Source: an uncultured Myxococcales bacterium (GTDB taxonomy: Bacteria; Myxococcota_A; UBA9042; CAIXZC01). Taken from it: a stretch of DNA of 64,000 nt. The translations under genes were made by a program, and so were the position numbers. The DNA lies in assembly GCA_964626565.1 (NCBI GenBank), contig CAZVFX010000011.1, positions 15,922 through 79,921 on the forward strand, in the 5' to 3' direction. Positions 1 to 11,487 of the stretch are shown here, piece by piece. Position 1 is the first letter of the stretch; each line of letters opens with the position of its first letter. The notes beneath the pieces are model-generated. The model searched no databases. It had not been told where the DNA came from and saw only the letters and a program-made list of their open reading frames with translations.

Positions 1-651
1 GCCAACGCATCTCTTACCGTTCCATTTCTGCCCCTTGGGGCAGTGAGTCGCAGGAGGGGGCGGTGCAACGCATCGCTTGCCGTTCCACTTCGTTCCCGCA
101 GGACAATTCTTCTTCTCGGGGTTGACGCGGATGCACCGCCGGCCGTTCCACCTGAGCCCCTTGGCGCACTTGGCTTTGGCAACCACGCAACGGTCGTTCA
201 TCAACTTGGTCCCCGGGGGACAATTCCCCTCGTAGCGGATGCAGCGCCGCCCGTTCCAGTGGGTGCCCCTGGGACACGGCGCCCGAGTGAGCACGCACCG
301 CTTGCCGTTCCACTTGGTGCCTTTCGGGCATTTGTAGACGCGTTTCTCGCAGAACTTCCCGTTCCAGCGAGAACCGGCGGGGCAAATAACCTCCACTGAG
401 GGCTGGACGCCTACACAGAGGCCGCCCTCGTAAGTAGTGCCGGCCGGGCACAACGGCTGCATGTCCCACTCGACGGCAACACAGTGCATTCCGTCCCACA
501 CGGTGTCAGGGGGGCAGACTACTTCCGACTCTACATAATAGGTCTGCGCCGGCGGGGGCGGTTGCTGGTAGACGTAAGTGGGACCACAAGATGCCGCCAG
601 AAAGGCAACCGCGGCCAGAGCGACAAAGCTGGTGGTGTAGATATTTTTCAT
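1..651 (-). CDS. Partial (C-terminus beyond window) lipoprotein with about seven tandem 20-aa Cys-rich repeats CPxGTxWNG[KR][KR]C
   Basis: Manual translation of the minus strand from ATG at 649-651 (RBS GAGGAGGA 5 nt upstream) gives MKNIYTTSFVALAAVAFLAASCGPT... (lipobox LAASC) and stays open to position 1. It is not in the ORF track because no stop lies in the window. The track ORFs 14..499(-) and 43..399(+) are other frames of the same DNA. Confidence 0.6.
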   Translation of the reverse strand, partial: MKNIYTTSFVALAAVAFLAASCGPTYVYQQPPPPAQTYYVESEVVCPPDTVWDGMHCVAVEWDMQPLCPAGTTYEGGLCVGVQPSVEVICPAGSRWNGKFCEKRVYKCPKGTKWNGKRCVLTRAPCPRGTHWNGRRCIRYEGNCPPGTKLMNDRCVVAKAKCAKGLRWNGRRCIRVNPEKKNCPAGTKWNGKRCVAPPPPATHCPKGQKWNGKRCVG

Positions 652-721
652 GTCATCCTCCTCGTCGTATCAGTCTGCCAATGGTACGAGTACGGGGCAC
701 TATTATTCACCGTAAGAGCTT

Positions 722-2350
722 CTACGACTCCAACAGTCCCACATCTCCTTCCACCATTTCAAGCACTTCCAGACGCCTGGTTGCAGACATCATGTTGTTG
801 TGGTCGGAGAAGAGCGGCCGGTCTTCGTCCAGGTGTTCCACCGTCTTCCGGACCGCCTGCAGCGCGGCCTGCACACCCTTCCCAAAGGTGTGCTCCCGGA
901 AGTCGAGAGCCTGGGCCGCACCGATAAACTCGATTCCGAGGACGCCGTAGGCGTTGTCCATCACTTGCCGGGCTTTCAAGGACGCGTTCATCCCCATGGA
1001 CACGAAATCCTCCTGGTCCGCGGCCGCGGGAATGGACTGGATTGAGGCTGGGTTGGAGAGGATGCGTTGTTCAACAATGAGGGAGTCCGCAGTGTACTGG
1101 CTGAGCATGTGCCCCGACATCATCCCTGCCCCTTTGGTGAGGAAGGGAGGCAAACCTACGCTCAGCGCAGGATTAAGCAGCCGGTTGAGGCGCCGCTCCG
1201 AGAGCACGCTGACCATGGTAATCGCGGCCGTCATGCCATCCACCGGCAGACTCACGGGGCTGCCCTGGAAATTGGCGCCGGTGAGCACGGTTTGATCTTC
1301 GGGCAGGAAGATGGGATTGTCGCCGACGCCGTTGAGCTCGACCTCGATCTGCTTGCGGGTCCAGCGGAACTGGTCCCGGGCCGCACCGATCACCTGAGGA
1401 GTGGAGCGCATGCTGTACGCGTCCTGCACTTTGACCTTCAACTTCCCGGTAAGGAGGTCTGAGCCATCCAGAACACGAATCAGGTTGGCGGCACACGTAA
1501 CCGCGCCGTCAAAACCCCTCAGCTTGTGCAGACGTACGTCGTACGGCTTGAGGTTGGCCAGGAGCGCCTCCAGGCTCATGGCCGCGGCGATCTCCGCCTG
1601 CTTCAGCCACAGCTCGGCGTCGTACAGCACCAACGCGGCGATGGCGGTGAGAAGATTACTGCCGTTGATGGTCGCCAGACCATCCCTGGCCTTCAACTCC
1701 ACCGGGGTGATGCCGGCACGTTTCAGCGCTTCATCGGAAGGCAACCGTTCCCCCTGGAAGAACGCCTCGCTCTCCCCCATCATGGTGAGCGCAATCTGGC
1801 TCATGGGAGAAAGGTCACCGCACGCCCCCACCGAGCCCTTTTCGCACACGACGGGCGTAACCCCCTTGTTGAGCATCTCAACCAGAGTCTGCGGAACCAG
1901 CGCCCGGCATCCGGAGAAGCCGTTGGCAATCACGTTGATGCGGCCAAGTATGCCGGCGCGAACATGGTCTTCAGGCATCGGCTCCCCGATGCCGGCGGCA
2001 TGATTGTAGATGAGCCATTTCTGGAATTGCTGGGTCTGTTCGTCGGAGAGAATCACCTCGGAGAATTCGCCGATGCCGGTGTTGACGCCGTACATTATCT
2101 CCTTGGCTTCAATCCTGTCTTCCAGGAACTCTCGGCAGTGGATGATGCGAGTCAGCGCCTCGGGATGAAGTTCCACTTTTCTGCCGTTGCGCGCCACCGC
2201 AACAACGTCTTCGATAGTCAGGTTTTTTCCGGTAATTGAGAGCGTCAACGCGAACCTCCTGTCTTCGCGGGGATCTTCGGCTTCCGAATCGGAGCGAAAC
2301 CCCCGCACGCTACGGAAAGTCGCTCCCGCCCACCCCGCTGCAACCGGCAA
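722..2350 (-). CDS. Aromatic amino acid/histidine ammonia-lyase family (HAL/PAL/TAL, MIO-type) enzyme; start codon uncertain (TTG at 2350 or an internal start)
   Basis: The N-terminus FALTLSITGKNLTIEDVVAVARNG matches HutH-type N-termini. The GSVGACGDLSP stretch sits at the MIO-forming position (canonical GSVGASGDL), and the rest shows family-wide conservation. Confidence 0.8.
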   Translation of the reverse strand: MPVAAGWAGATFRSVRGFRSDSEAEDPREDRRFALTLSITGKNLTIEDVVAVARNGRKVELHPEALTRIIHCREFLEDRIEAKEIMYGVNTGIGEFSEVILSDEQTQQFQKWLIYNHAAGIGEPMPEDHVRAGILGRINVIANGFSGCRALVPQTLVEMLNKGVTPVVCEKGSVGACGDLSPMSQIALTMMGESEAFFQGERLPSDEALKRAGITPVELKARDGLATINGSNLLTAIAALVLYDAELWLKQAEIAAAMSLEALLANLKPYDVRLHKLRGFDGAVTCAANLIRVLDGSDLLTGKLKVKVQDAYSMRSTPQVIGAARDQFRWTRKQIEVELNGVGDNPIFLPEDQTVLTGANFQGSPVSLPVDGMTAAITMVSVLSERRLNRLLNPALSVGLPPFLTKGAGMMSGHMLSQYTADSLIVEQRILSNPASIQSIPAAADQEDFVSMGMNASLKARQVMDNAYGVLGIEFIGAAQALDFREHTFGKGVQAALQAVRKTVEHLDEDRPLFSDHNNMMSATRRLEVLEMVEGDVGLLES

Positions 2351-3226: not shown

Positions 3227-4104
3227 TGACCTACACCTATTATCCCGGCTGCTCACTCCACGCGACGTCCCGGGCTTACGACGAGTCCATTCGAGCCATC
3301 GCCGGCACTCTGGGCCTCGAACTCGCTGAGGTAGAGGACTGGAACTGCTGCGGGGCCACCGCGTACATGTCGGTCAACGAGACGTTATCCCACTGCCTTA
3401 CCGCGCGCAATCTGGCGCTGGCAGCGGCCCAGGGTGGCGACATGGTGGCGCCGTGCAGCGCGTGCTACACCAACCTGATGAAGACCAACTCATATCTCAA
3501 GGAATTTCCAGACCTTAAGGAGAAGGTCGACTCGGCTCTCGCCGAGGCGGACCTCACTTATGGCGGTGACGTCAAGGTGCGGCACTTCCTCGAAGTGGTT
3601 GTAAACGACATCGGCCTGGAGAAGATCCGCGGCCTGGTGAAGAAACCTCTGGACGGGTTGAAAATCGCGCCCTATTACGGCTGCCAGATTGTCCGGCCGT
3701 TGAGCGTTGAGGACGACCCCGATGAGCCGGTTCTTCTTGATCATCTGCTGGAAGCCCTTGGGGCCACGGTGGTCACCTATCCCATGAAGACGACCTGCTG
3801 CGGTGGCTCCCTCATGGGAACCAAGGAGGAGGTGGCGCGGCGCCTGACGCGTAATCTGCTGCTGTGCGCCGCACAGTTTGAAGCGGACGTCATCGCAGTA
3901 ACCTGCCCGTTGTGCCAGATGAATCTTGACGGCTACCAGACGCGAATCAACAAGGAGTACGGGACCGCGTTCGAAATCCCGGTGCTCTACTTCCCTCAGT
4001 TGATGGGCATGGCCTTTGGAGAACAGGCGGAGCCCCTTGGACTGCAGCGAGGTGTCGTGCCTTTGGGCGAGACAGTTTCGCGCTACGTGGAGGGTTCGAG
4101 ATGA
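3226..4104 (+). CDS. hdrB: Heterodisulfide reductase subunit B (CCG-domain protein)
   Basis: MTYTYYPGCSL N-terminus, two CCG cysteine-rich domains (NCCG...TCCGG), ATGA overlap with hdrA. Confidence 0.85.
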   Translation: MTYTYYPGCSLHATSRAYDESIRAIAGTLGLELAEVEDWNCCGATAYMSVNETLSHCLTARNLALAAAQGGDMVAPCSACYTNLMKTNSYLKEFPDLKEKVDSALAEADLTYGGDVKVRHFLEVVVNDIGLEKIRGLVKKPLDGLKIAPYYGCQIVRPLSVEDDPDEPVLLDHLLEALGATVVTYPMKTTCCGGSLMGTKEEVARRLTRNLLLCAAQFEADVIAVTCPLCQMNLDGYQTRINKEYGTAFEIPVLYFPQLMGMAFGEQAEPLGLQRGVVPLGETVSRYVEGSR

Positions 4105-7100
4105 GCAGCAAGATCGGAGTGTACATTTGCCACTGCGGCACCAACATCTCGGGCAATGTCGACATCGATGAAGTGGTCGAGTTTGCCCGGACTCTTCCCG
4201 AGGTCTCAATCGTACGGGACTACCGGTTCATGTGCTCTGACCCGGGGCAGAACCTCATCCAGGAGGACATCGACAAGATGGGCCTCGACAGGGTGGTGGT
4301 AGCCTCATGTTCCCCTTTGATGCATGAGCCGACTTTCCGGGGTGCGTGCGAGCGGCAGGGGCTTAACGCCTATCTGTTCACCATGGCCAACATCCGTGAG
4401 CATTGCTCGTGGGTCTCGTTCGATTCCGGCGTGGCCACTGATAAGGCCAAGGCCCTTATCGCCGGTTCTGTGCGGCGAGCCGCCTTCCTGGCCCCTTTGG
4501 AGCAGAAGACTGTTCCGGTGAATCCGAACACTCTGGTGGTAGGCGCCGGCATCGCGGGCATTCAGGCGGCGTTGGACATTGCCGATGCAGGGCACAAGGT
4601 ATACCTGGTGGAGAAAGACAGCTCCATCGGCGGCCACATGGCCAAGTTTGACAAGACCTTCCCCACCCTGGACTGCTCCGCATGTATCCTGACCCCGAAG
4701 ATGGTGCAAGTGGGTCAGCACCCTAACATCGAGTTACTCACCTGTTCTACGGTGGAGGAAGTAACCGGATACGTTGGCAATTTCAAGGCGAAGGTAAAAT
4801 CCACTCCGCGCTTTGTGGACGCGGCCAAGTGCACGTCCTGCGGTGAGTGCACCAAGGTTTGCCCCGTCGATGTCAGCAACGAATTCGAAGAAGGCATGTG
4901 CGACCGGAAGGCGGTGTACCGGAACTTCCCGCAGGCTGTACCGAACACCTTCCTCATCGACCACCCGCAAGCGGCCCCCTGCCAGGCAACCTGCCCGGTG
5001 GGACAGCAGGTGCAGGGCTATGTGGCGCTGGTGGCCCAGGGCAAGTTCAACGAAGCCCACGAACTGATTCGAAAAACCAGCGCGTTGCCTTCGATCTGCG
5101 GACGCGTTTGTTACCATCCCTGCGAAACCAACTGCAAGCGAGAGGCAGTTGATGACCCGGTGGCAGTAAAAGGGTTGAAACGTTTCGTCCTGGACAACTC
5201 GCCGCTGCCCGAAATCGAGCCTCCCCCGAGTTCAGGGAAGAAGGTGGCCATTGTTGGCTCGGGGCCGGCCGGACTTACCGCCGCGCACGACCTGGCCTTG
5301 AAAGGTCACGACGTCACGGTGCTCGAAGCGCAGGCAGAGCTGGGAGGCATGCTGAGGCTCGGCATTCCGGCGTACAGGCTCCCGCGCAACATTATTAAGA
5401 ATGACATTGACTTCATCCGCAAACTGGGGGTGAAATTCCAGACCAACACCCTTGTGGATGCAGCTAGATTCAGCCAACTCCGGGCAACTCACGACGCACT
5501 CTTCCTGGGTGTGGGAGCTCACACGGCTCTGGCCCTGGGGCTCGAGGACGACACGGTGGCGGGCATCGAGTTGGGAATCGACTTTTTGCGCAAGGCCAAC
5601 CTCGGCCTTGACGTTGCGGTGGGGCAGCGGGTCGCAGTCATCGGTGGTGGCAACACCGCGGTGGATGCGGCCCGCACCGCAATCCGTATGGGCTCCCAGC
5701 GGGTCGACATCCTCTATCGCCGCTCGCGGGCTGAAATGCCTGCTGACGACGAGGAGATCGAGGCGCTGCTTGAGGAAGGGCTGAACATAGAGTTCCTGGT
5801 GGCGCCCACCAAGGTACTTCACAAAGACGGCAAATTGACCGGTCTCAAGGTCGTGCAGATGGAATTGGGTGAGCCTGACGCCAGCGGCCGGCGCCGGCCG
5901 ATACCGATTGCAGGCAGCGAAGGGACCGTGGAATACGACATGGTGATCCCCGCAATCAGCCAGAAACCCGATAACGGGTTCGCTGAAAACTCGGGCATGG
6001 AGTTGACCCGGTGGGGCACCATTTCCGTAAACACGGTGAACTGCAGCACAAACATACCCAGGGTCTTTGCCGGCGGCGACAACGTACGAGGCCCGGCCTC
6101 CGTAATCGAAGCGATGGCTGACGGCAAGCGGGCTGCCACCGCCATCCACAACCTGCTTTCCGGCCGCTCTTTGAGTGATGGGCTGACTGCACCCGAACCG
6201 TACGACCTTGAACTGAGCGAAGAAGAACGCCTTACTCTCAAGGTGGATACATCGGTGGAGAAGCGAGTCAAGATGCCGACCCTCGACCCTGCCAAGCGGG
6301 TGACCTCTTTCGACGAGGTCGAACTGGGATACACCGAGGCAATGGCCAGGGACGAGGCGGCGAGATGCCTCAGTTGCGGCGTGTGTTCCGAATGCGGAGA
6401 ATGCGCCCGGGTATGCGAGCCGGGAGCCATCGACTACGACATGAAAGAAACGGTTCATGAAGTGGAAATCGGGTCGGTGATCGTGGCAACGGGGTTTGAA
6501 GCTTTCGACTCGAAGGAGGCGGTGCGTTACGGGTACGGCAAGTTCCCCGATGTTTACACCGGGCTTGAGTTCGAGCGGATGAACAGCGCTTCAGGTCCCA
6601 CCGACGGCCAGTTGCGGCTGAAGAACGGGGAGACCCCCAAGAGTGTGGGCATCATCCATTGCGTCGGCAGCCGCGACAAGCACCACAATGAGTATTGCTC
6701 CCGGGTTTGCTGCATGTACTCCTTGAAGTTTGCTCACCTCGTGGCCGAGAAGACGGGTGCGGAGGTGTACAACTTCTACATTGACATGCGCTGTTTCGGC
6801 AAGGGGTACGAGGAGTTCTACAACCGCTTGCTGGAAGAAGACGTCCGGTTCGTGCGTGGGCGGGCCGCATTTGTCACCGACTTCCCTCTTAACGAAGAGG
6901 AACGGGACAAGTTGGTGATTCGAGTTGAAGACACGCTCATCGGCGAAATGCGGCGCATCCCGGTGGACATGGTAATTCTCTCCACCGGTCTCGAAGCGAG
7001 AAAGGACTCCCAGGACGTGTCCCGGATGTTCAACATCAGCAGGGGGAAGGACGGCTTCTTCCTGGAGAAGCACCCGAAGCTGGCCCCGGTAGCCACGGCT

Positions 7101-7469
7101 ACGGACGGAATCTTCCTCGCCGGCGCGTGCCAGGGTCCAAAGGACATCCCCGACACCGTGGCCCAGGGTTCAGCCGCTGCGGCCCAGGTGCTGTCCATGG
7201 TCGCCAGGGGAGAGATCAGCATCGAGGTTGCCACTTGTACGGTGAACGAGGAGCTGTGCGGGGGATGCCGGGTGTGCAATTCGGCCTGCGCCCTGTCGGC
7301 GATTACGTTCGAAGAAGAAAAGGGCGTTTCAGTGATAAACGACGCTCTGTGCAAGGGTTGCGGGACGTGTGCGGCGGCTTGCCCCAGCGGGGCCATTTCC
7401 GCCAAGCATTTCACGGACGAGCAGATAATCTCTGAAATCGAGGGGGTGCTCCATGACGTACGAGCCTAA
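4101..7469 (+). CDS. hdrA: Large HdrA-like flavoprotein (1122 aa) with an inserted GltD/NADPH-oxidoreductase-like module (HdrL-type)
   Basis: HdrA N-terminal Cys cluster and the FAD fold VVGAGIAGIQAALDIADAGHKVYLVEK. An internal block KKVAIVGSGPAGLTAAHDLALKGHDV...VAVIGGGNTAVDAA (two Rossmann folds) is preceded by a CxxxCP Fe-S region typical of glutamate synthase small subunit. C-terminal CVGSRD plus a 2x[4Fe-4S] region. Confidence 0.8.
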   Translation: MSSKIGVYICHCGTNISGNVDIDEVVEFARTLPEVSIVRDYRFMCSDPGQNLIQEDIDKMGLDRVVVASCSPLMHEPTFRGACERQGLNAYLFTMANIREHCSWVSFDSGVATDKAKALIAGSVRRAAFLAPLEQKTVPVNPNTLVVGAGIAGIQAALDIADAGHKVYLVEKDSSIGGHMAKFDKTFPTLDCSACILTPKMVQVGQHPNIELLTCSTVEEVTGYVGNFKAKVKSTPRFVDAAKCTSCGECTKVCPVDVSNEFEEGMCDRKAVYRNFPQAVPNTFLIDHPQAAPCQATCPVGQQVQGYVALVAQGKFNEAHELIRKTSALPSICGRVCYHPCETNCKREAVDDPVAVKGLKRFVLDNSPLPEIEPPPSSGKKVAIVGSGPAGLTAAHDLALKGHDVTVLEAQAELGGMLRLGIPAYRLPRNIIKNDIDFIRKLGVKFQTNTLVDAARFSQLRATHDALFLGVGAHTALALGLEDDTVAGIELGIDFLRKANLGLDVAVGQRVAVIGGGNTAVDAARTAIRMGSQRVDILYRRSRAEMPADDEEIEALLEEGLNIEFLVAPTKVLHKDGKLTGLKVVQMELGEPDASGRRRPIPIAGSEGTVEYDMVIPAISQKPDNGFAENSGMELTRWGTISVNTVNCSTNIPRVFAGGDNVRGPASVIEAMADGKRAATAIHNLLSGRSLSDGLTAPEPYDLELSEEERLTLKVDTSVEKRVKMPTLDPAKRVTSFDEVELGYTEAMARDEAARCLSCGVCSECGECARVCEPGAIDYDMKETVHEVEIGSVIVATGFEAFDSKEAVRYGYGKFPDVYTGLEFERMNSASGPTDGQLRLKNGETPKSVGIIHCVGSRDKHHNEYCSRVCCMYSLKFAHLVAEKTGAEVYNFYIDMRCFGKGYEEFYNRLLEEDVRFVRGRAAFVTDFPLNEEERDKLVIRVEDTLIGEMRRIPVDMVILSTGLEARKDSQDVSRMFNISRGKDGFFLEKHPKLAPVATATDGIFLAGACQGPKDIPDTVAQGSAAAAQVLSMVARGEISIEVATCTVNEELCGGCRVCNSACALSAITFEEEKGVSVINDALCKGCGTCAAACPSGAISAKHFTDEQIISEIEGVLHDVRA

Positions 7470-7917
7470 AATCGTCGGTTTCCTCTGTAACTGGTGTTCC
7501 TACACCGGCGCTGATCTGGCAGGCATGTCGCGGATGAAATACGCCCACAACGTTCGTATCGTGCGCGTCATGTGTTCCGGCCGGGTAGACCCCACTTTCG
7601 TGGTGAAAGCCTTCGCCAGCGGGGCGGACGGCGTCCTGGTGGCGGGTTGTCACCCCGGGGACTGCCATTACATCGAGGGCAACTACAAAACCATGCGGCG
7701 CATGCCACTCCTGAAGAAGATGTTGAAAGAATATGGAGTGGACGAGCGCAGGTTCCGACTCGAGTGGATCTCGGCCTCCGAAGGCGACCGGTTCGCAGAG
7801 GTGGTCAACGAGATGTCTGCCGAATTAGCTAAGTTGGGCCCGTGCAGTTTGGGGCAGGAAGGCAACGTGCCTGATCAGCCCTCTGATGTGCAACAGCCAG
7901 CAAACCCTGCCGGCTAA
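7453..7917 (+). CDS. mvhD: MvhD-like (methyl-viologen-reducing hydrogenase delta subunit) [2Fe-2S] electron-transfer protein
   Basis: N-terminus KIVGFLCNWCSYTGADLAG...MCSGRVDP...GCHPGDCHY; overlaps the hdrA end by 17 nt. Confidence 0.8.
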   Translation: MTYEPKIVGFLCNWCSYTGADLAGMSRMKYAHNVRIVRVMCSGRVDPTFVVKAFASGADGVLVAGCHPGDCHYIEGNYKTMRRMPLLKKMLKEYGVDERRFRLEWISASEGDRFAEVVNEMSAELAKLGPCSLGQEGNVPDQPSDVQQPANPAG

Positions 7918-7937: not shown

Positions 7938-8894
7938 ATGGCAAAGCTCAAACTCGCTTCGTACTGGGCGGCGGCATGCGGGGGCTGCGACACCGCCATC
8001 CTCGACATTCATGAGAAGATACTGGATCTTGCCGCGGCTGCCGATATTCTGTTCTGGCCCATTGCGGTGGACACCAAGTACAAGGACGTTGAGGCCATGC
8101 CGGACGGTCACATCGATGTCACCTTGTTCCACGGCGCCATTCGCAACTCCGAGAACGAGTACTTGGCCAAGCTGCTCAGAGCCAAGAGCAAAGTACTGGT
8201 GGCATTCGGAAGCTGCTCCCACCTGGGTGGGATCCCCGGCCTGGCCAACATGTTCAACCGTGACGAAATCTTCGAGCGAGTCTATCAAACGACTCCCAGC
8301 ACGGTGAACGAGGCCGGCACGCTGCCTCACATGGTCACCAAGGTGCCGGAAGGCGAACTGGAACTGCCGGAGTTCTACAACACGGTGCGAACTTTGGACC
8401 AGGTGGTGGACGTGGAGTACTATGTTCCCGGTTGCCCTCCGCCCCCGGCACAGATATGGGCTGTGGTGGAGGCCATCGTTTCCGGGAATCTCCCGCCCGC
8501 CGGGTCGATAGTCGGAGCGTCGGACAAGTCGCAGTGCGACGAATGTCCTCGTGAGAAGACCGACATGAAGATGAAAGAGGTGAAGCGTATCGCCACCCAT
8601 CAACCGGACCAGACCCGATGTTTCCTCGAGCAGGGCTTTGTTTGCCTGGGCGCTGCCACACGAGGAGGCTGCGACACCCGCTGCCAGACTTCGGGGGTCG
8701 GTTGCAGGGGATGCTTCGGGCCCACGGCTGAAGTGTTGGACCAGGGGGCCAAGGCTCTCTCCTCCATCGCGTCGGTGCTGGACTCCAACGACCCGCAGGA
8801 AATTGCCCGGATGCTGGAGCAGATAGACGATCCCGTCAGGTTGTTTGATCGTTTCAGTATACCCGCCTCGTTCCTCAGGAGGAAATCGCTATGA
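7938..8894 (+). CDS. mvhG: Group-3 [NiFe]-hydrogenase small subunit (MvhG-like)
   Basis: N-terminal YWAAACGGCDTAIL and a C-terminal Cys-rich Fe-S cluster region (CDECP...C...C...CRGCFGP); ATGA overlap with the large-subunit gene. Confidence 0.8.
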   Translation: MAKLKLASYWAAACGGCDTAILDIHEKILDLAAAADILFWPIAVDTKYKDVEAMPDGHIDVTLFHGAIRNSENEYLAKLLRAKSKVLVAFGSCSHLGGIPGLANMFNRDEIFERVYQTTPSTVNEAGTLPHMVTKVPEGELELPEFYNTVRTLDQVVDVEYYVPGCPPPPAQIWAVVEAIVSGNLPPAGSIVGASDKSQCDECPREKTDMKMKEVKRIATHQPDQTRCFLEQGFVCLGAATRGGCDTRCQTSGVGCRGCFGPTAEVLDQGAKALSSIASVLDSNDPQEIARMLEQIDDPVRLFDRFSIPASFLRRKSL

Positions 8895-10354
8895 AGACCG
8901 TAACCATTGACCCGATCACTCGATTGGAAGGCCATGGGAAGATCACCATCTTCCTCAACGATGCGGGAGGGGTGGAAAACGCCTACTTCCAGGTCCCGGA
9001 ACTGAGGGGCTTCGAGAAGTTCGTTGAGGGTATGCCGGTGGAGGAGGTCCCAAGGGTGGTGCAACGCATCTGCGGGGTCTGACCGGCCGCACACCATCTG
9101 GCCTCGGGTAAGGCCGTAGACGCAGTATACAAAGCAGATCCTCCGGTGGCAGCAAAAAAACTGAGAGAGATGTTCTACAGCGCTCACTACGTGCACAGCC
9201 ACATCGCGCACTTTTACGCTCTGGCCGCGGCCGACTTCGTTGTCGGCCCTGATGCAGACCCGGCAGAGCGGAACATCCTCGGCGTGGTGGGAAAGGTGGG
9301 TGTGGAGATTGGCGGGGAAGTGATCAAGCATCGCGCTATTGCGCAGAACATCCAGATCGCGATCTCAGGACGGTCGACCCACCCTGTATGGTGCGTTCCC
9401 GGTGGGGTAAGCAAGGGGATCACCGAGGAGCAACGCCTGGAAATCATCGAGCAGGCGAAAAGCTGTGTGGAGTTCTCCAAGTTCTCCCTTAAGATCTTCA
9501 ACGATGTGGTGCTGGGCAACAAGGCTTACCTCGACCTGGTGTTGAGCGACACTTACGAGCTGGACTCGTACTACATCGGGACTGTGGATAAGAACAACCA
9601 TGTGAACTTCTACCACGGCGACCACCGGGTAGTGGATCAGGAGTGCAACGAGGTCTTTCGCTATCAGGATCATGAGTACCTGGATTACCTGGCCGAGCAC
9701 GTCGAGAAGTTCACTTATCTAAAGTTCCCGTATCTCAAGAAGATCGGCTGGAAGGGCATGGTGGACGGTAAAGATTCGGGGGTCTACCAGGCCACTCCGC
9801 TCAGTCGCCTCAACGCGGCAGTAGGCATGGCCACGCCGGCCGCCCACGCTGAGTATGAACGCATGTTCGAGACCCTGGGCGGCAAGCCGGTGAAGAAGCT
9901 CCTCGCCACCCACTGGGCGCGTCTGGTGGAGTTGCTCTATGCGGCAGAGCGCCTCCTGGAGCTGGCCCAGGACCCGGAGGTTGCATCTCCCGATGTCCGC
10001 AACCTGCCCACGGAGACTCCGTCCGAAGGTGTCGGCATCGTGGAAGCCCCCCGGGGCATTCTGACTCACCACTACAAAACCGACGAAAGAGGAATCGTTA
10101 CCGCGGCCAACATAATCGTTGGGACGACCAACAACCACGCCCCCATCTCCATGGCCATCAAGAACGCAGCCGAAAAGCTGATTCAGCCAGGCCAGGAGAT
10201 TGGGCAGGGCCTCCTCAACATGGTGGAGATGGCCTTCCGCATTTATGACCCCTGCTTCTCTTGCGCAACTCACACTTTGCCGGGGGAGATGCCCCTTATC
10301 GTTGAGGTGCGTGATCACAATGAAGAGGTGGTCCACCGGGTGGCGCGCTCATGA
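8891..10354 (+). CDS. mvhA: [NiFe]-hydrogenase large subunit (MvhA-like). The in-frame TGA at 9080-9082 falls exactly on the second Cys of the N-terminal RxCGxC Ni-binding motif, so it is a probable selenocysteine. The track splits it into 8891..9082 and 9146..10354.
   Basis: Translation reads ...VVQRICGV[TGA]PAAHHLASGKAVDAVY..., compared with MvhA [20 protein letters not shown]. The same frame stays open across the TGA, with no other stop between 9083 and 9145. The C-terminal DPCFSCATH motif and a 26-aa extension are intact. Confidence 0.75.
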
Positions 10355-10815
10355 AGACCCGGGTCATCGGCCTCGGCAACTCCATCCTCACCGACGACGG
10401 TGTTGGAATTGTGGTTGTATCCGAACTGCAGAAGACTCCGCAGGGCGGGGAGGTCGACGTCATCAGGTCCGAGGTAGCCGGCTTCGCACTGTTGGAGCTG
10501 ATGAGCGGCTGGGACCGTGTCATTCTCGTTGATGCAATCAAGTTCGACGACCTTGAGCCCGGCACCATTGTCCGCATCGATCCTGCCGACTTGCGAACCT
10601 CACTCAGGTTGCGATCGGTTCACGAAATCGACCTTCCTACCGCGCTTGCGTTCGGTCGCAAGCTCAAGATCCCCATGCCTGAGAAGGTAGTGGTCATCGG
10701 CATCCAGGCCGATGACATTCTCACGTTCGGAGAGACGTTAACTCCGGCGCTCGCCAAGGCTGTGCCAGAGGCCGTCAATCTGGTACTGGAGGAGTTGGCC
10801 GAACCCCAGGGGTGA
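10351..10815 (+). CDS. Hydrogenase maturation endopeptidase (HycI/HoxW/FrhD, peptidase A31 family)
   Basis: GLGNSILTDDGVGIVV motif; size 154 aa; ATGA-coupled to the large subunit, whose C-terminal extension it would cleave. Confidence 0.8.
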   Translation: MKTRVIGLGNSILTDDGVGIVVVSELQKTPQGGEVDVIRSEVAGFALLELMSGWDRVILVDAIKFDDLEPGTIVRIDPADLRTSLRLRSVHEIDLPTALAFGRKLKIPMPEKVVVIGIQADDILTFGETLTPALAKAVPEAVNLVLEELAEPQG

Positions 10816-10821
10816 ACCCGC

Positions 10822-11487
10822 CTATTTCATCTGGATAAGCCCGACCTTGATTGCAAATTGCGTGAGCTTTGACCGATTGCGAATACCCAGCTTGTCGGTG
10901 AGATTGAACCTGTGCGCCATGACGGTTTTCACCGCCAGCCCCAACGCCTCGGCCATCTCCTTGTTGCTATAGCCCTCCGCAATGAGTTTCAGGACCTGTC
11001 GCTCCCGGGGCGTGAGCAGGTTATACGCCGCCTCTTCGCTCTCCGGCTGACCGCCGCCGCCGGGCCCCGCGACGAGTTCCTGGGCCAGGCTGGGATCGAT
11101 GTACATTCCCCCGGCCATCACTCCTCGAATCGCGGCGAGCAGTTCCTCGCCGCGCGCGGACTTAAGAATGTACCCGTTGGCCCCCGCCTCAATGAGCCGC
11201 CGCAAGTAGATCGACTCTCCGTATTGGGTGAGTATGAGAATGCGGATTTCCGAGCGCCGTCGGCGCAACTCAAGGGTGGTCTCCAGTCCGCCCATCCCTT
11301 CCATCGACAGGTCGAGAAGCAGGAGGTCCGGATAGAGCCGGTCTACCAACTCGATGGCGCCCTCGCCCGAGGAGGCTTCGCCCACCACTGTAAACCGCGT
11401 TTCGGTCTGCTCTTCAAGGAAGGACTTCAAGCCCACCCGGAGAACCACATGATCATCGGCAAGAACAACCCTTATGGTCGAACCCAT
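10822..11487 (-). CDS. NarL/LuxR-family response regulator (REC + HTH_LuxR)
   Basis: The N-terminal REC domain (VVLADDH..., conserved D/K positions) and the C-terminal LTPRERQVLKLIAEGYSNKEMAEAL helix-turn-helix. Confidence 0.85.
   Translation of the reverse strand: MGSTIRVVLADDHVVLRVGLKSFLEEQTETRFTVVGEASSGEGAIELVDRLYPDLLLLDLSMEGMGGLETTLELRRRRSEIRILILTQYGESIYLRRLIEAGANGYILKSARGEELLAAIRGVMAGGMYIDPSLAQELVAGPGGGGQPESEEAAYNLLTPRERQVLKLIAEGYSNKEMAEALGLAVKTVMAHRFNLTDKLGIRNRSKLTQFAIKVGLIQMK

Follow-up and report, generated by a model that had tools for sequence, protein, structure and literature searches.

A predicted lipoprotein of tandem two-cysteine hairpin units at the window edge of a DNA stretch from an uncultured Myxococcales bacterium

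A gene cut by the window edge

The DNA considered here, called the window below, is a stretch of 64,000 nucleotides from an uncultured Myxococcales bacterium (contig CAZVFX010000011.1 of assembly GCA_964626565.1). On its minus strand, positions 1..651 hold the 5' part (codons 1-217 of 376) of a gene for a hairpin-repeat lipoprotein, identified by its open frame, by the gene called on two longer contigs (L001 and L002, see below), and by the GC content at third codon positions (GC3). Translation of positions 1-651 from the ATG at 649-651 proceeds through 217 codons to position 1 without a stop, as had been read in an earlier note on this DNA, and the product opens with MKNIYTTSFVALAAVAFLAASCG. 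A Shine-Dalgarno-like AGGAGG can be read 5 nt upstream of the ATG (657..662, minus strand). A scan of the locus for promoters and terminators found none.

The list of open reading frames (ORFs) made for this stretch contains only 14..499(-) and 43..399(+); the frame described here is absent from it because ORFs running off the window are not listed. Codon-position GC decides between the frames. The GC3 of the proposed frame is 0.751, in line with that of three neighbouring genes (0.75-0.77), whereas the two listed ORFs reach 0.57 and 0.51, respectively, their high GC being shifted to codon position 1. Both were therefore rejected as genes and are wrong-frame artefacts, as the earlier note had held. 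The proposed frame contains six copies of the strict motif C-x2-G-x2-[WFY]-[ND]-G-x2-C, and a six-frame translation of the whole 64 kb shows no other, to be compared with a mean of 0.0001 in 10,000 residue shuffles. Tandem Repeats Finder detects no tandem repeat at the DNA level, and the two units most alike share 92% identity in protein and 78% in DNA, which indicates that the repeats are old and have been kept by selection on the peptide.

An exact-match scan with the first 60 nt of the window found no match among genome and metagenome contigs; the source contigs were reached through a look-up of the neighbouring HdrB-like protein. These are two long metagenome contigs, L001 (JGI Ga0115649_1000098, 187 kb) and L002 (ENA SUTE22-1 scaffold_376, 106 kb), both 100% identical to positions 1-700 of the window. 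On both, the source gene callers report a 376-residue gene on the minus strand (6296-7426 of L001), so that the gene suspected to have been missed at the window edge is real. The earlier note had it continue "upstream" of the window; the part beyond position 1 is instead the 3' (C-terminal) part, in which 159 further codons precede the stop (L001 6296-6775), with neither an early stop nor a frameshift. The exact 376-residue sequence is absent from the protein collection.

Hairpin units and predicted structure

The full protein comprises a signal peptide, Cys22, the segment GPTYVYQQPPPP, and 15 units of the form C-P-x-G-x-x-W-N/D-G-x-x-C. All features listed in this section lie on the minus strand. 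The signal peptide (residues 1-21, 589..651), read from the sequence and matched by equivalent signals in the orthologues, consists of MKNIYTT, a hydrophobic core, and L-A-A-S. It is followed by the lipobox Cys22 (586..588), at which the mature protein is predicted to start and to carry its lipid, and then by a conserved GPTYVY. A CGP(T/V)Y stands at the same place in the four orthologues L015, L031, P0073, and P0052 (see next section), which bears out the lipoprotein signal proposed earlier. By its sequence, MKNIYTTSFVALAAVAFLAAS-C22 qualifies as the lipobox of an Lgt/LspA substrate, and it fits the PROSITE-type lipobox pattern. The lipoboxes of the orthologues read VLAC, AVGC, GAAC, and AAAC, with an equivalent Cys-Gly-Pro.

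A scan for C-x10-C, with degenerate copies counted, gives nine units in the window, starting at residues 46, 68, 90, 108, 126, 144, 162, 183, and 204. Unit 1 is CPPDTVWDGMHC (residues 46-57, 481..516), and unit 2, CPAGTTYEGGLC (residues 68-79, 415..450), is degenerate, with a hairpin predicted by AlphaFold. The strict motif is carried by unit 3, CPAGSRWNGKFC (residues 90-101, 349..384), unit 4, CPKGTKWNGKRC (residues 108-119, 295..330), and unit 5, CPRGTHWNGRRC (residues 126-137, 241..276). Unit 6, CPPGTKLMNDRC (residues 144-155, 187..222), is degenerate and has no Trp. The strict motif returns in unit 7, CAKGLRWNGRRC (residues 162-173, 133..168), unit 8, CPAGTKWNGKRC (residues 183-194, 70..105), and unit 9, CPKGQKWNGKRC (residues 204-215, 7..42). 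Units 10-15 lie outside the window. Fourteen units are 12 residues long, and one, unit 12, is a C-x12-C unit of 14 residues. The repeat announced in the earlier note is thus present, but not its fixed period of 20 residues or 60 nt: unit starts are 18-22 residues apart in the window (mean ~20) and 18-38 in the full protein. The linkers measure 6-26 residues, those toward the C-terminus being longer and richer in Pro and Lys (e.g., KKPAPRPKPKPRPKDRDKPKPKA).

The unit consensus in this protein is C-P-x-G-[TS]-x-W-[ND]-G-[KG]-R-C, and the positions conserved among units are Pro2, Gly4, Trp7, Asn/Asp8, Gly9, Arg11, and Val13. Over the 54 units of the lipoprotein, L015, and L031, from which a 20-column unit profile was built, Arg11 is found in 34, Val13 in 41, and Lys14 in 20. 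The mature chain has 14 Trp, 14% Lys, 13.5% Pro, a net charge of +56, and a pI of ~9.95. It contains 31 cysteines (1 + 2x15). Mature-protein cysteines likewise number 1 + 2n in every orthologue (49 in L031, 45 in L015, 23 in P0052, and 11 in the partial P0073), and no other feature of the sequence speaks as strongly for one lipidated Cys plus one disulfide per unit.

AlphaFold models were obtained for residues 45-217 with no alignment (mean predicted local distance difference test, pLDDT, 65.6; predicted template modelling score, pTM, 0.28) and for residues 23-217 with an 18-row alignment (mean pLDDT 75.5, pTM 0.25). In both, every unit is a strand-turn-strand hairpin, and the chain is extended and devoid of a globular core. 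The low pTM values imply no confident packing between units in the models, which would fit beads on a string. Together with the cysteine count, this agrees with the picture of a two-cysteine module repeated as beads that had been drawn from the first reading. The observation made there is confirmed, and its interpretation is supported.

Relatives, known folds and gene neighbourhood

The full protein scores 34.5 bits against Pfam DUF5874 (PF19202), for a cutoff of 27.1; the window fragment alone stays under it with 25.4 bits, and orthologue L031 reaches 84.1 bits. The repeat is therefore catalogued but uncharacterised. It had been thought to belong to no recognised family; it indeed matches no well-known characterised one, yet passes the threshold of DUF5874. 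Tandem CPxGxxWNGxxC-type units are common to the family and the lipoprotein, and the 74 positions of the DUF5874 model cover several units at once. The lipobox with its GPTYVY N-terminus and the cationic Pro/Lys-rich tail set the subfamily of the lipoprotein apart. On the strength of its sequence, the gene is a further member of the catalogued, uncharacterised DUF5874 hairpin-repeat proteins. Among remote matches, 16 of 60 match DUF5874, and most of the others match nothing. A literature search on DUF5874, PF19202, and MXAN_6577 found nothing.

Other models fall short. NCBIfam NF041328 (MXAN_6577-like) gives 22-25 bits (scores of 22.2 and 23.8 among them) for a cutoff of 100. Pfam CBM_14 (PF01607) sums to 32.4 bits for a sequence cutoff of 22.1, every matching stretch covering only profile positions ~20-48; with two cysteines per unit, the lipoprotein does not have the 53 positions and multiple disulfides of a full-length CBM_14 domain. 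EGF-like domains are represented by cEGF and EGF_3 matches only (E 4-5, ~8 bits), again over units of two cysteines. Weak cEGF and EB Pfam matches are found among the relatives.

The same architecture as in the lipoprotein is found in L015 (Deltaproteobacteria bacterium K_DeepCast_100m_m2_324) and L031 (uncultured Myxococcales LaPlata_bin-3248), with a lipobox, CGPTYVVY, and then 22-24 units each. Their N-terminal parts align collinearly with that of the lipoprotein at 45-49% identity, and the lipobox Cys and GPTYV are kept. A profile search added P0073 (partial, LACGPTYVYQQP) and P0052/P0191 (337 residues, VGCGPVYY, with a Pro/Arg/Lys-rich tail). The orthologues occur in metagenome-assembled genomes (MAGs) labelled Myxococcales, Myxococcota, or Deltaproteobacteria. 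A word-indexed homologue search returned one weak match, probably swamped by Pro-rich words, and a second homologue search with a 108-residue fragment yielded three candidates and no matches.

Beyond the orthologues, 51 loci in species-representative genomes match a degenerate DNA pattern that spans two units in succession. These include many small lipoproteins of Polyangiaceae and other Myxococcota with 3-5 units, alphaproteobacterial arrays, acidobacterial proteins, Bacteriovoracaceae, and giant surface proteins of Patescibacteria (CPSGQYWNGSACV). In L007, L012, L047, and L055 (Saccharibacteria and other Patescibacteria), C-P-x-G-x-x-W-N-G-x-x-C hairpins are located at the C-termini of surface proteins of 1,300-1,700 residues; in L049 and L050 (Shewanella sp. 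NIFS-20-20), they form internal arrays in Rhs/YD-repeat toxins. An exhaustive HMMER scan of 1.84 billion representatives retrieved 641 proteins at E<=1e-3, of which 183 reach E<=1e-10, with lengths from 115 to 4,470 residues. Its matches include fungal proteins (one source-named 'cell wall cysteine-rich'), an insect protein, and P0159. The module is fused elsewhere to Peptidase_M23, OmpA plus caspase, FGE-sulfatase, Hcp, and Rhs toxins. P0159 (L059 6994-8250) is a very basic protein (418 residues, +76) built of CPKGTKWDGKTKKC units. Its contig otherwise carries eukaryote- or giant-virus-like genes (IBR, U-box/KH, SNF2, Viral_helicase1, and ABC1 kinase), so that the hairpin module is not confined to bacteria. 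P0159 was rejected as an orthologue, its 'CGP' being at residue 77 and its contig bearing eukaryote- or giant-virus-like genes.

Searched against all PDB sequences, the unit profile finds its best match in scarabaecin (1IYC, SNCPKGKVWNGFDC (CPKGKVWNGFDC), residues 16-29, E 0.0023), an antifungal peptide of the beetle Oryctes rhinoceros; phmmer with the full protein found no match among the PDB sequences, where the unit profile alone gave one. The C-x12-C unit has only two PDB matches, scarabaecin (E 0.17) and the hairpin of the carbohydrate-binding module 14 (CBM14) of PfAvr4, CPSGLLWNDNKKWC (E 0.4). Scarabaecin reportedly binds chitin, its C-terminal half being said to form a disulfide-stapled two-stranded sheet like the chitin-binding motif of tachycitin and hevein. 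Its only disulfide closes a loop of 12 residues, C-P-K-G-K-V-W-N-G-F-D-C, the same loop as that of the lipoprotein's units, and the profile match has the scarabaecin-type form C-P-x-G-x-x-W-N-G-x-x-C, in which the single disulfide would be expected here too. Scarabaecin is a peptide of 36 residues with a single disulfide, listed among the single-disulfide cationic antimicrobial peptides (PMC6265681). It occurs as a single free peptide, whereas the lipoprotein is bacterial, predicted to be lipid-anchored, and has 15 tandem copies. The resemblance to scarabaecin is one of sequence type and need not reflect common ancestry.

A similar loop is found in the CBM14 domains of tachycitin, Avr4, and the CHIT1 chitin-binding domain. 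The PfAvr4 hairpin CPSGLLWNDNKKWC aligns with CPKGKLWNERTKKC of the lipoprotein, a weaker match that falls on the C4-C5 hairpin. The B4-B5 hairpin of CfAvr4 is enclosed by the Cys86-Cys101 disulfide, and Lys99, Trp100, Asp102, and Tyr103, located there or just after it, contact (GlcNAc)6 (GlcNAc, N-acetylglucosamine) (PMC6128652). CfAvr4 has four disulfide pairs, and other CBM14 structures keep two or three of them (PMC6128652). A CBM14 domain spans ~53 profile positions with several disulfides, whereas a unit of the lipoprotein would have one disulfide and a small sheet. The fold-defining positions common to the units and the scarabaecin/CBM14 hairpin are Cys1, Pro2, Gly4, Trp7, Asn8, and Cys12.

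Other hairpin-based rods are known. The TraA stalk, the MXAN_6577-like proteins (NF041328), and, by prediction, the lipoprotein are all extracytoplasmic Myxococcota proteins of disulfide-rich β-hairpin repeats. TraA repeats, however, are far richer in cysteines per unit, and they display a head domain. The EGF-like C5-C6 hairpin and the TNFR and furin-like rods are single-disulfide β-fingers strung into rods, as is predicted for the lipoprotein, and the top non-significant Foldseek matches of the AlphaFold models are NELL2 EGF1-6, DR5 (TNFR cysteine-rich domains), and the EGFR cysteine-rich region. No structural or sequence match to EGF, TNFR, or furin-like rods is significant, however; an EGF domain needs six cysteines, and the loop of the units exceeds the EGF C5-C6 loop by two residues.

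An aromatic amino acid lyase (HAL/PAL-like) is encoded 70 nt upstream of the lipoprotein gene, on the same strand (722-2350, minus strand). No terminator is predicted between the two. The start of the lyase is ambiguous: 542 residues for the longest ORF (TTG), 528 in the JGI call, and 508 in that of ENA. Farther from the lipoprotein gene come HdrC/B/A-like, MvhD-like, and [NiFe] hydrogenase genes. The HdrA-like ORF (4101-7469, plus strand; 1,122 residues) is much longer than a typical HdrA, and its extra Fer4_20 and Pyr_redox_2 (GltD/NfnB-like) matches suggest a fusion protein. The gene for the hydrogenase large subunit (8891-10354, plus strand) has an in-frame TGA at 9080-9082, exactly where the N-terminal nickel-binding motif (R-I-C-G-V-TGA-P-A-A-H) would have its second Cys, and both source gene callers split it into 63 and ~400 residues. 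No Rfam family of the selenocysteine insertion sequence (SECIS) matches at this TGA, and the hairpin that follows it is no more stable than those of shuffled sequences. The TGA may encode selenocysteine at an unusual position, or the gene may be a pseudogene.

On the other side, outside the window, a convergent gene (L001 1692-6281, plus strand), 14 nt from the stop of the basic lipoprotein, encodes an extremely acidic lipoprotein of 1,529 residues with an LFAC lipobox, TSP_3 calcium-binding repeats, MopE-type motifs, and a Gly-rich C-terminus. L015 and L031 share another neighbourhood, with a dienoyl-CoA-reductase-like gene and a pseudouridine synthase. That of L058 is different again, with a TSP_3 protein nearby. 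In L058, orthologue P0191 is flanked by two cysteine-rich proteins (6024-7760, 73 Cys in 578 residues; 10015-11022, 30 Cys in 335 residues) with N-terminal signal-like sequences, a different repeat type, and a weak Dicty_CTDC match. A functional pairing of the lipoprotein with either of its neighbours, the HAL-like lyase and the acidic TSP_3/MopE protein, was considered and dropped, as synteny is not conserved.

Proposed function and its alternatives

Taken as a whole, the protein may be read as an exported lipoprotein of 15 disulfide hairpins whose role would most likely be that of a multivalent binder of an envelope or matrix polymer, a reading that we hold to be about as probable as all others together. 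The signal peptide would be removed and Cys22 lipidated, and the Gly at +2 would direct the protein to the outer membrane, following the sorting rules of E. coli and Myxococcus lipoproteins. Each loop would be closed by its own disulfide, formed in the periplasm, and fold as a small β-hairpin. Fifteen such autonomous loops and their linkers would make an extended, flexible, and strongly cationic string of beads tethered to the membrane, which could bind a polymer of the envelope or of the extracellular matrix by avidity. Counted in favour of this reading is the apparent extracytoplasmic, cell-wall-associated use of the module in other proteins. As the conserved Lys/Arg flank the second Cys where Avr4 has its ligand-contacting Trp/Tyr, an anionic glycan or another polyanion would be a likelier ligand than neutral chitin; we give it a weak preference.

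Several points weigh against the multivalent-binder reading. Position -3 of the lipobox is Ala, not Leu. The protein has no characterised homologue, DUF5874 being a family of unknown function, and a Foldseek comparison of both AlphaFold models with the PDB returned nothing significant (best E 0.23). The scarabaecin match spans 14 residues, and short Cys-rich motifs can be convergent. The units lack the aromatic C-terminal tail of scarabaecin (KSPFAFS), which is reportedly part of its chitin-binding fold, and the aromatic contacts of CBM14 (Trp100 and Tyr103 of CfAvr4, Trp465 of CHIT1), the ligand-contacting Trp and Tyr of Avr4 being replaced by Lys/Arg and Val. With these contact residues and the tail missing, the likeness supports a fold rather than chitin binding as such, and the resemblance to the scarabaecin/CBM14 hairpin may concern the fold only. 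The strong positive charge is not conserved: the net charges of L031 and L015 are only +6 and +9, which counts against charge alone as the function. No neighbour is conserved across the window, L015/L031, and L058, so that the gene stands alone and its context offers no functional clue. Finally, by the adjoining Hdr/Mvh genes the host appears to be an anaerobe, and periplasmic disulfide formation is assumed.

The hairpin array might bind nothing at all and act as a passive spacer or stalk: a semi-rigid ruler or filler, resistant to proteases, that sits in the periplasm or at the surface. Such a role has a precedent in Myxococcus TraA, whose Cys-rich region is described as a stalk of β-hairpins and thought to serve for presentation (PMC12045341). 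Many other proteins carry the module next to functional domains or in between them, the linkers rich in Pro and Lys look like extended spacers, and the AlphaFold chain is extended without a globular core. The lipoprotein, however, has its hairpins end to end and no head domain to present. Surface Trp7, Asn/Asp8, and Arg11 are conserved in the orthologues, which a mere spacer would not need. Moreover, the NCBIfam scan reported no TraA-type or Myxococcus cysteine-rich repeat model, and NF041328, the only related model, lies far below its cutoff. A spacer therefore seems rather unlikely, if still a serious candidate. A true lectin for GlcNAc polymers, binding chitin or peptidoglycan strands and tethering the outer membrane to the wall or the cell to chitinous or prey surfaces, would account for the fact that the only PDB sequence matches are the chitin binders scarabaecin and PfAvr4 CBM14, for partial CBM_14 matches above the whole-sequence cutoff (32.4 vs 22.1 bits), and for fusions of the module to M23 peptidases and OmpA-like domains or its presence in fungal proteins source-named 'cell wall cysteine-rich'. 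Yet the CfAvr4 residues Trp100, Asp102, and Tyr103 that contact (GlcNAc)6 (PMC6128652) correspond to Lys/Arg, Val, and Lys in the units, the units correspond to roughly half of a CBM14 domain and to a single one of its three disulfides, and the aromatic tail of scarabaecin is missing. This makes such a lectin improbable in our judgement.

Two further proposals take the cysteines or the charge as the point of departure. In the reducing envelope of an anaerobe, the 30 unit cysteines might remain as free thiols that capture metals or sulfide, whether to sequester them or to attach to minerals; the neighbouring genes for Hdr/Mvh-type anaerobic energy metabolism and the putative metal-binding MopE-type motifs of the convergent neighbour would suit this. 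The strict 1 + 2n count, the fixed C-x10-C spacing, and the Pro-Gly plus Asn-Gly turn signature are instead typical of disulfide loops, the lipoprotein has no CxxC or His-rich motifs, and the same unit is disulfide-bonded in scarabaecin (PMC6265681), which leaves thiol or metal chemistry very improbable. Slighter still is the chance that the protein is a polyprotein whose cationic antimicrobial hairpins are directed at competitors or prey, either carried on membranes or vesicles or set free, as scarabaecin-like Trp/Arg peptides, by cleavage in the linkers. Units such as CPKGTKWNGKRC (net +4) do resemble single-disulfide cationic antimicrobial peptides, scarabaecin among them, and the MAGs of the orthologues are assigned to Myxococcales, Myxococcota, and Deltaproteobacteria, a group that includes predators. 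Against it, no processing sites are recognisable, no dedicated protease or exporter is encoded nearby, and orthologues L015 and L031 are nearly neutral; we know of no bacterial precedent for such a polyprotein, which also counts against it.

A bolder version would take the bacterial DUF5874 hairpin, scarabaecin, and the CBM14 C4-C5 hairpin as one ancient minimal glycan-binding module, with the lipoprotein as a 15-valent surface lectin or adhesin, or as a vesicle-borne carrier of cationic antimicrobial hairpins, with which a Myxococcota-like bacterium would grip or attack the cell walls of other organisms. We regard this as a long shot.

The locus itself is ordinary: it encodes a stand-alone envelope protein without conserved partners. 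What is added here is the completed gene, which corrects an annotation gap at the window edge, together with the cysteine count, a set of orthologues, and the resemblance to the scarabaecin/CBM14 hairpin. DUF5874 thereby gains a concrete structural reading, namely one disulfide-stapled hairpin per ~12 residues and a 1 + 2n cysteine rule. A testable lead is offered by the likeness to the chitin-binding hairpin of scarabaecin and CBM14, in which the ligand-contact positions are switched to Lys/Arg. Since the module is widespread (641 cluster representatives at E<=1e-3, from bacteria, fungi, insects, and a eukaryote- or giant-virus-like contig), the ligand of a single unit would annotate many secreted proteins.

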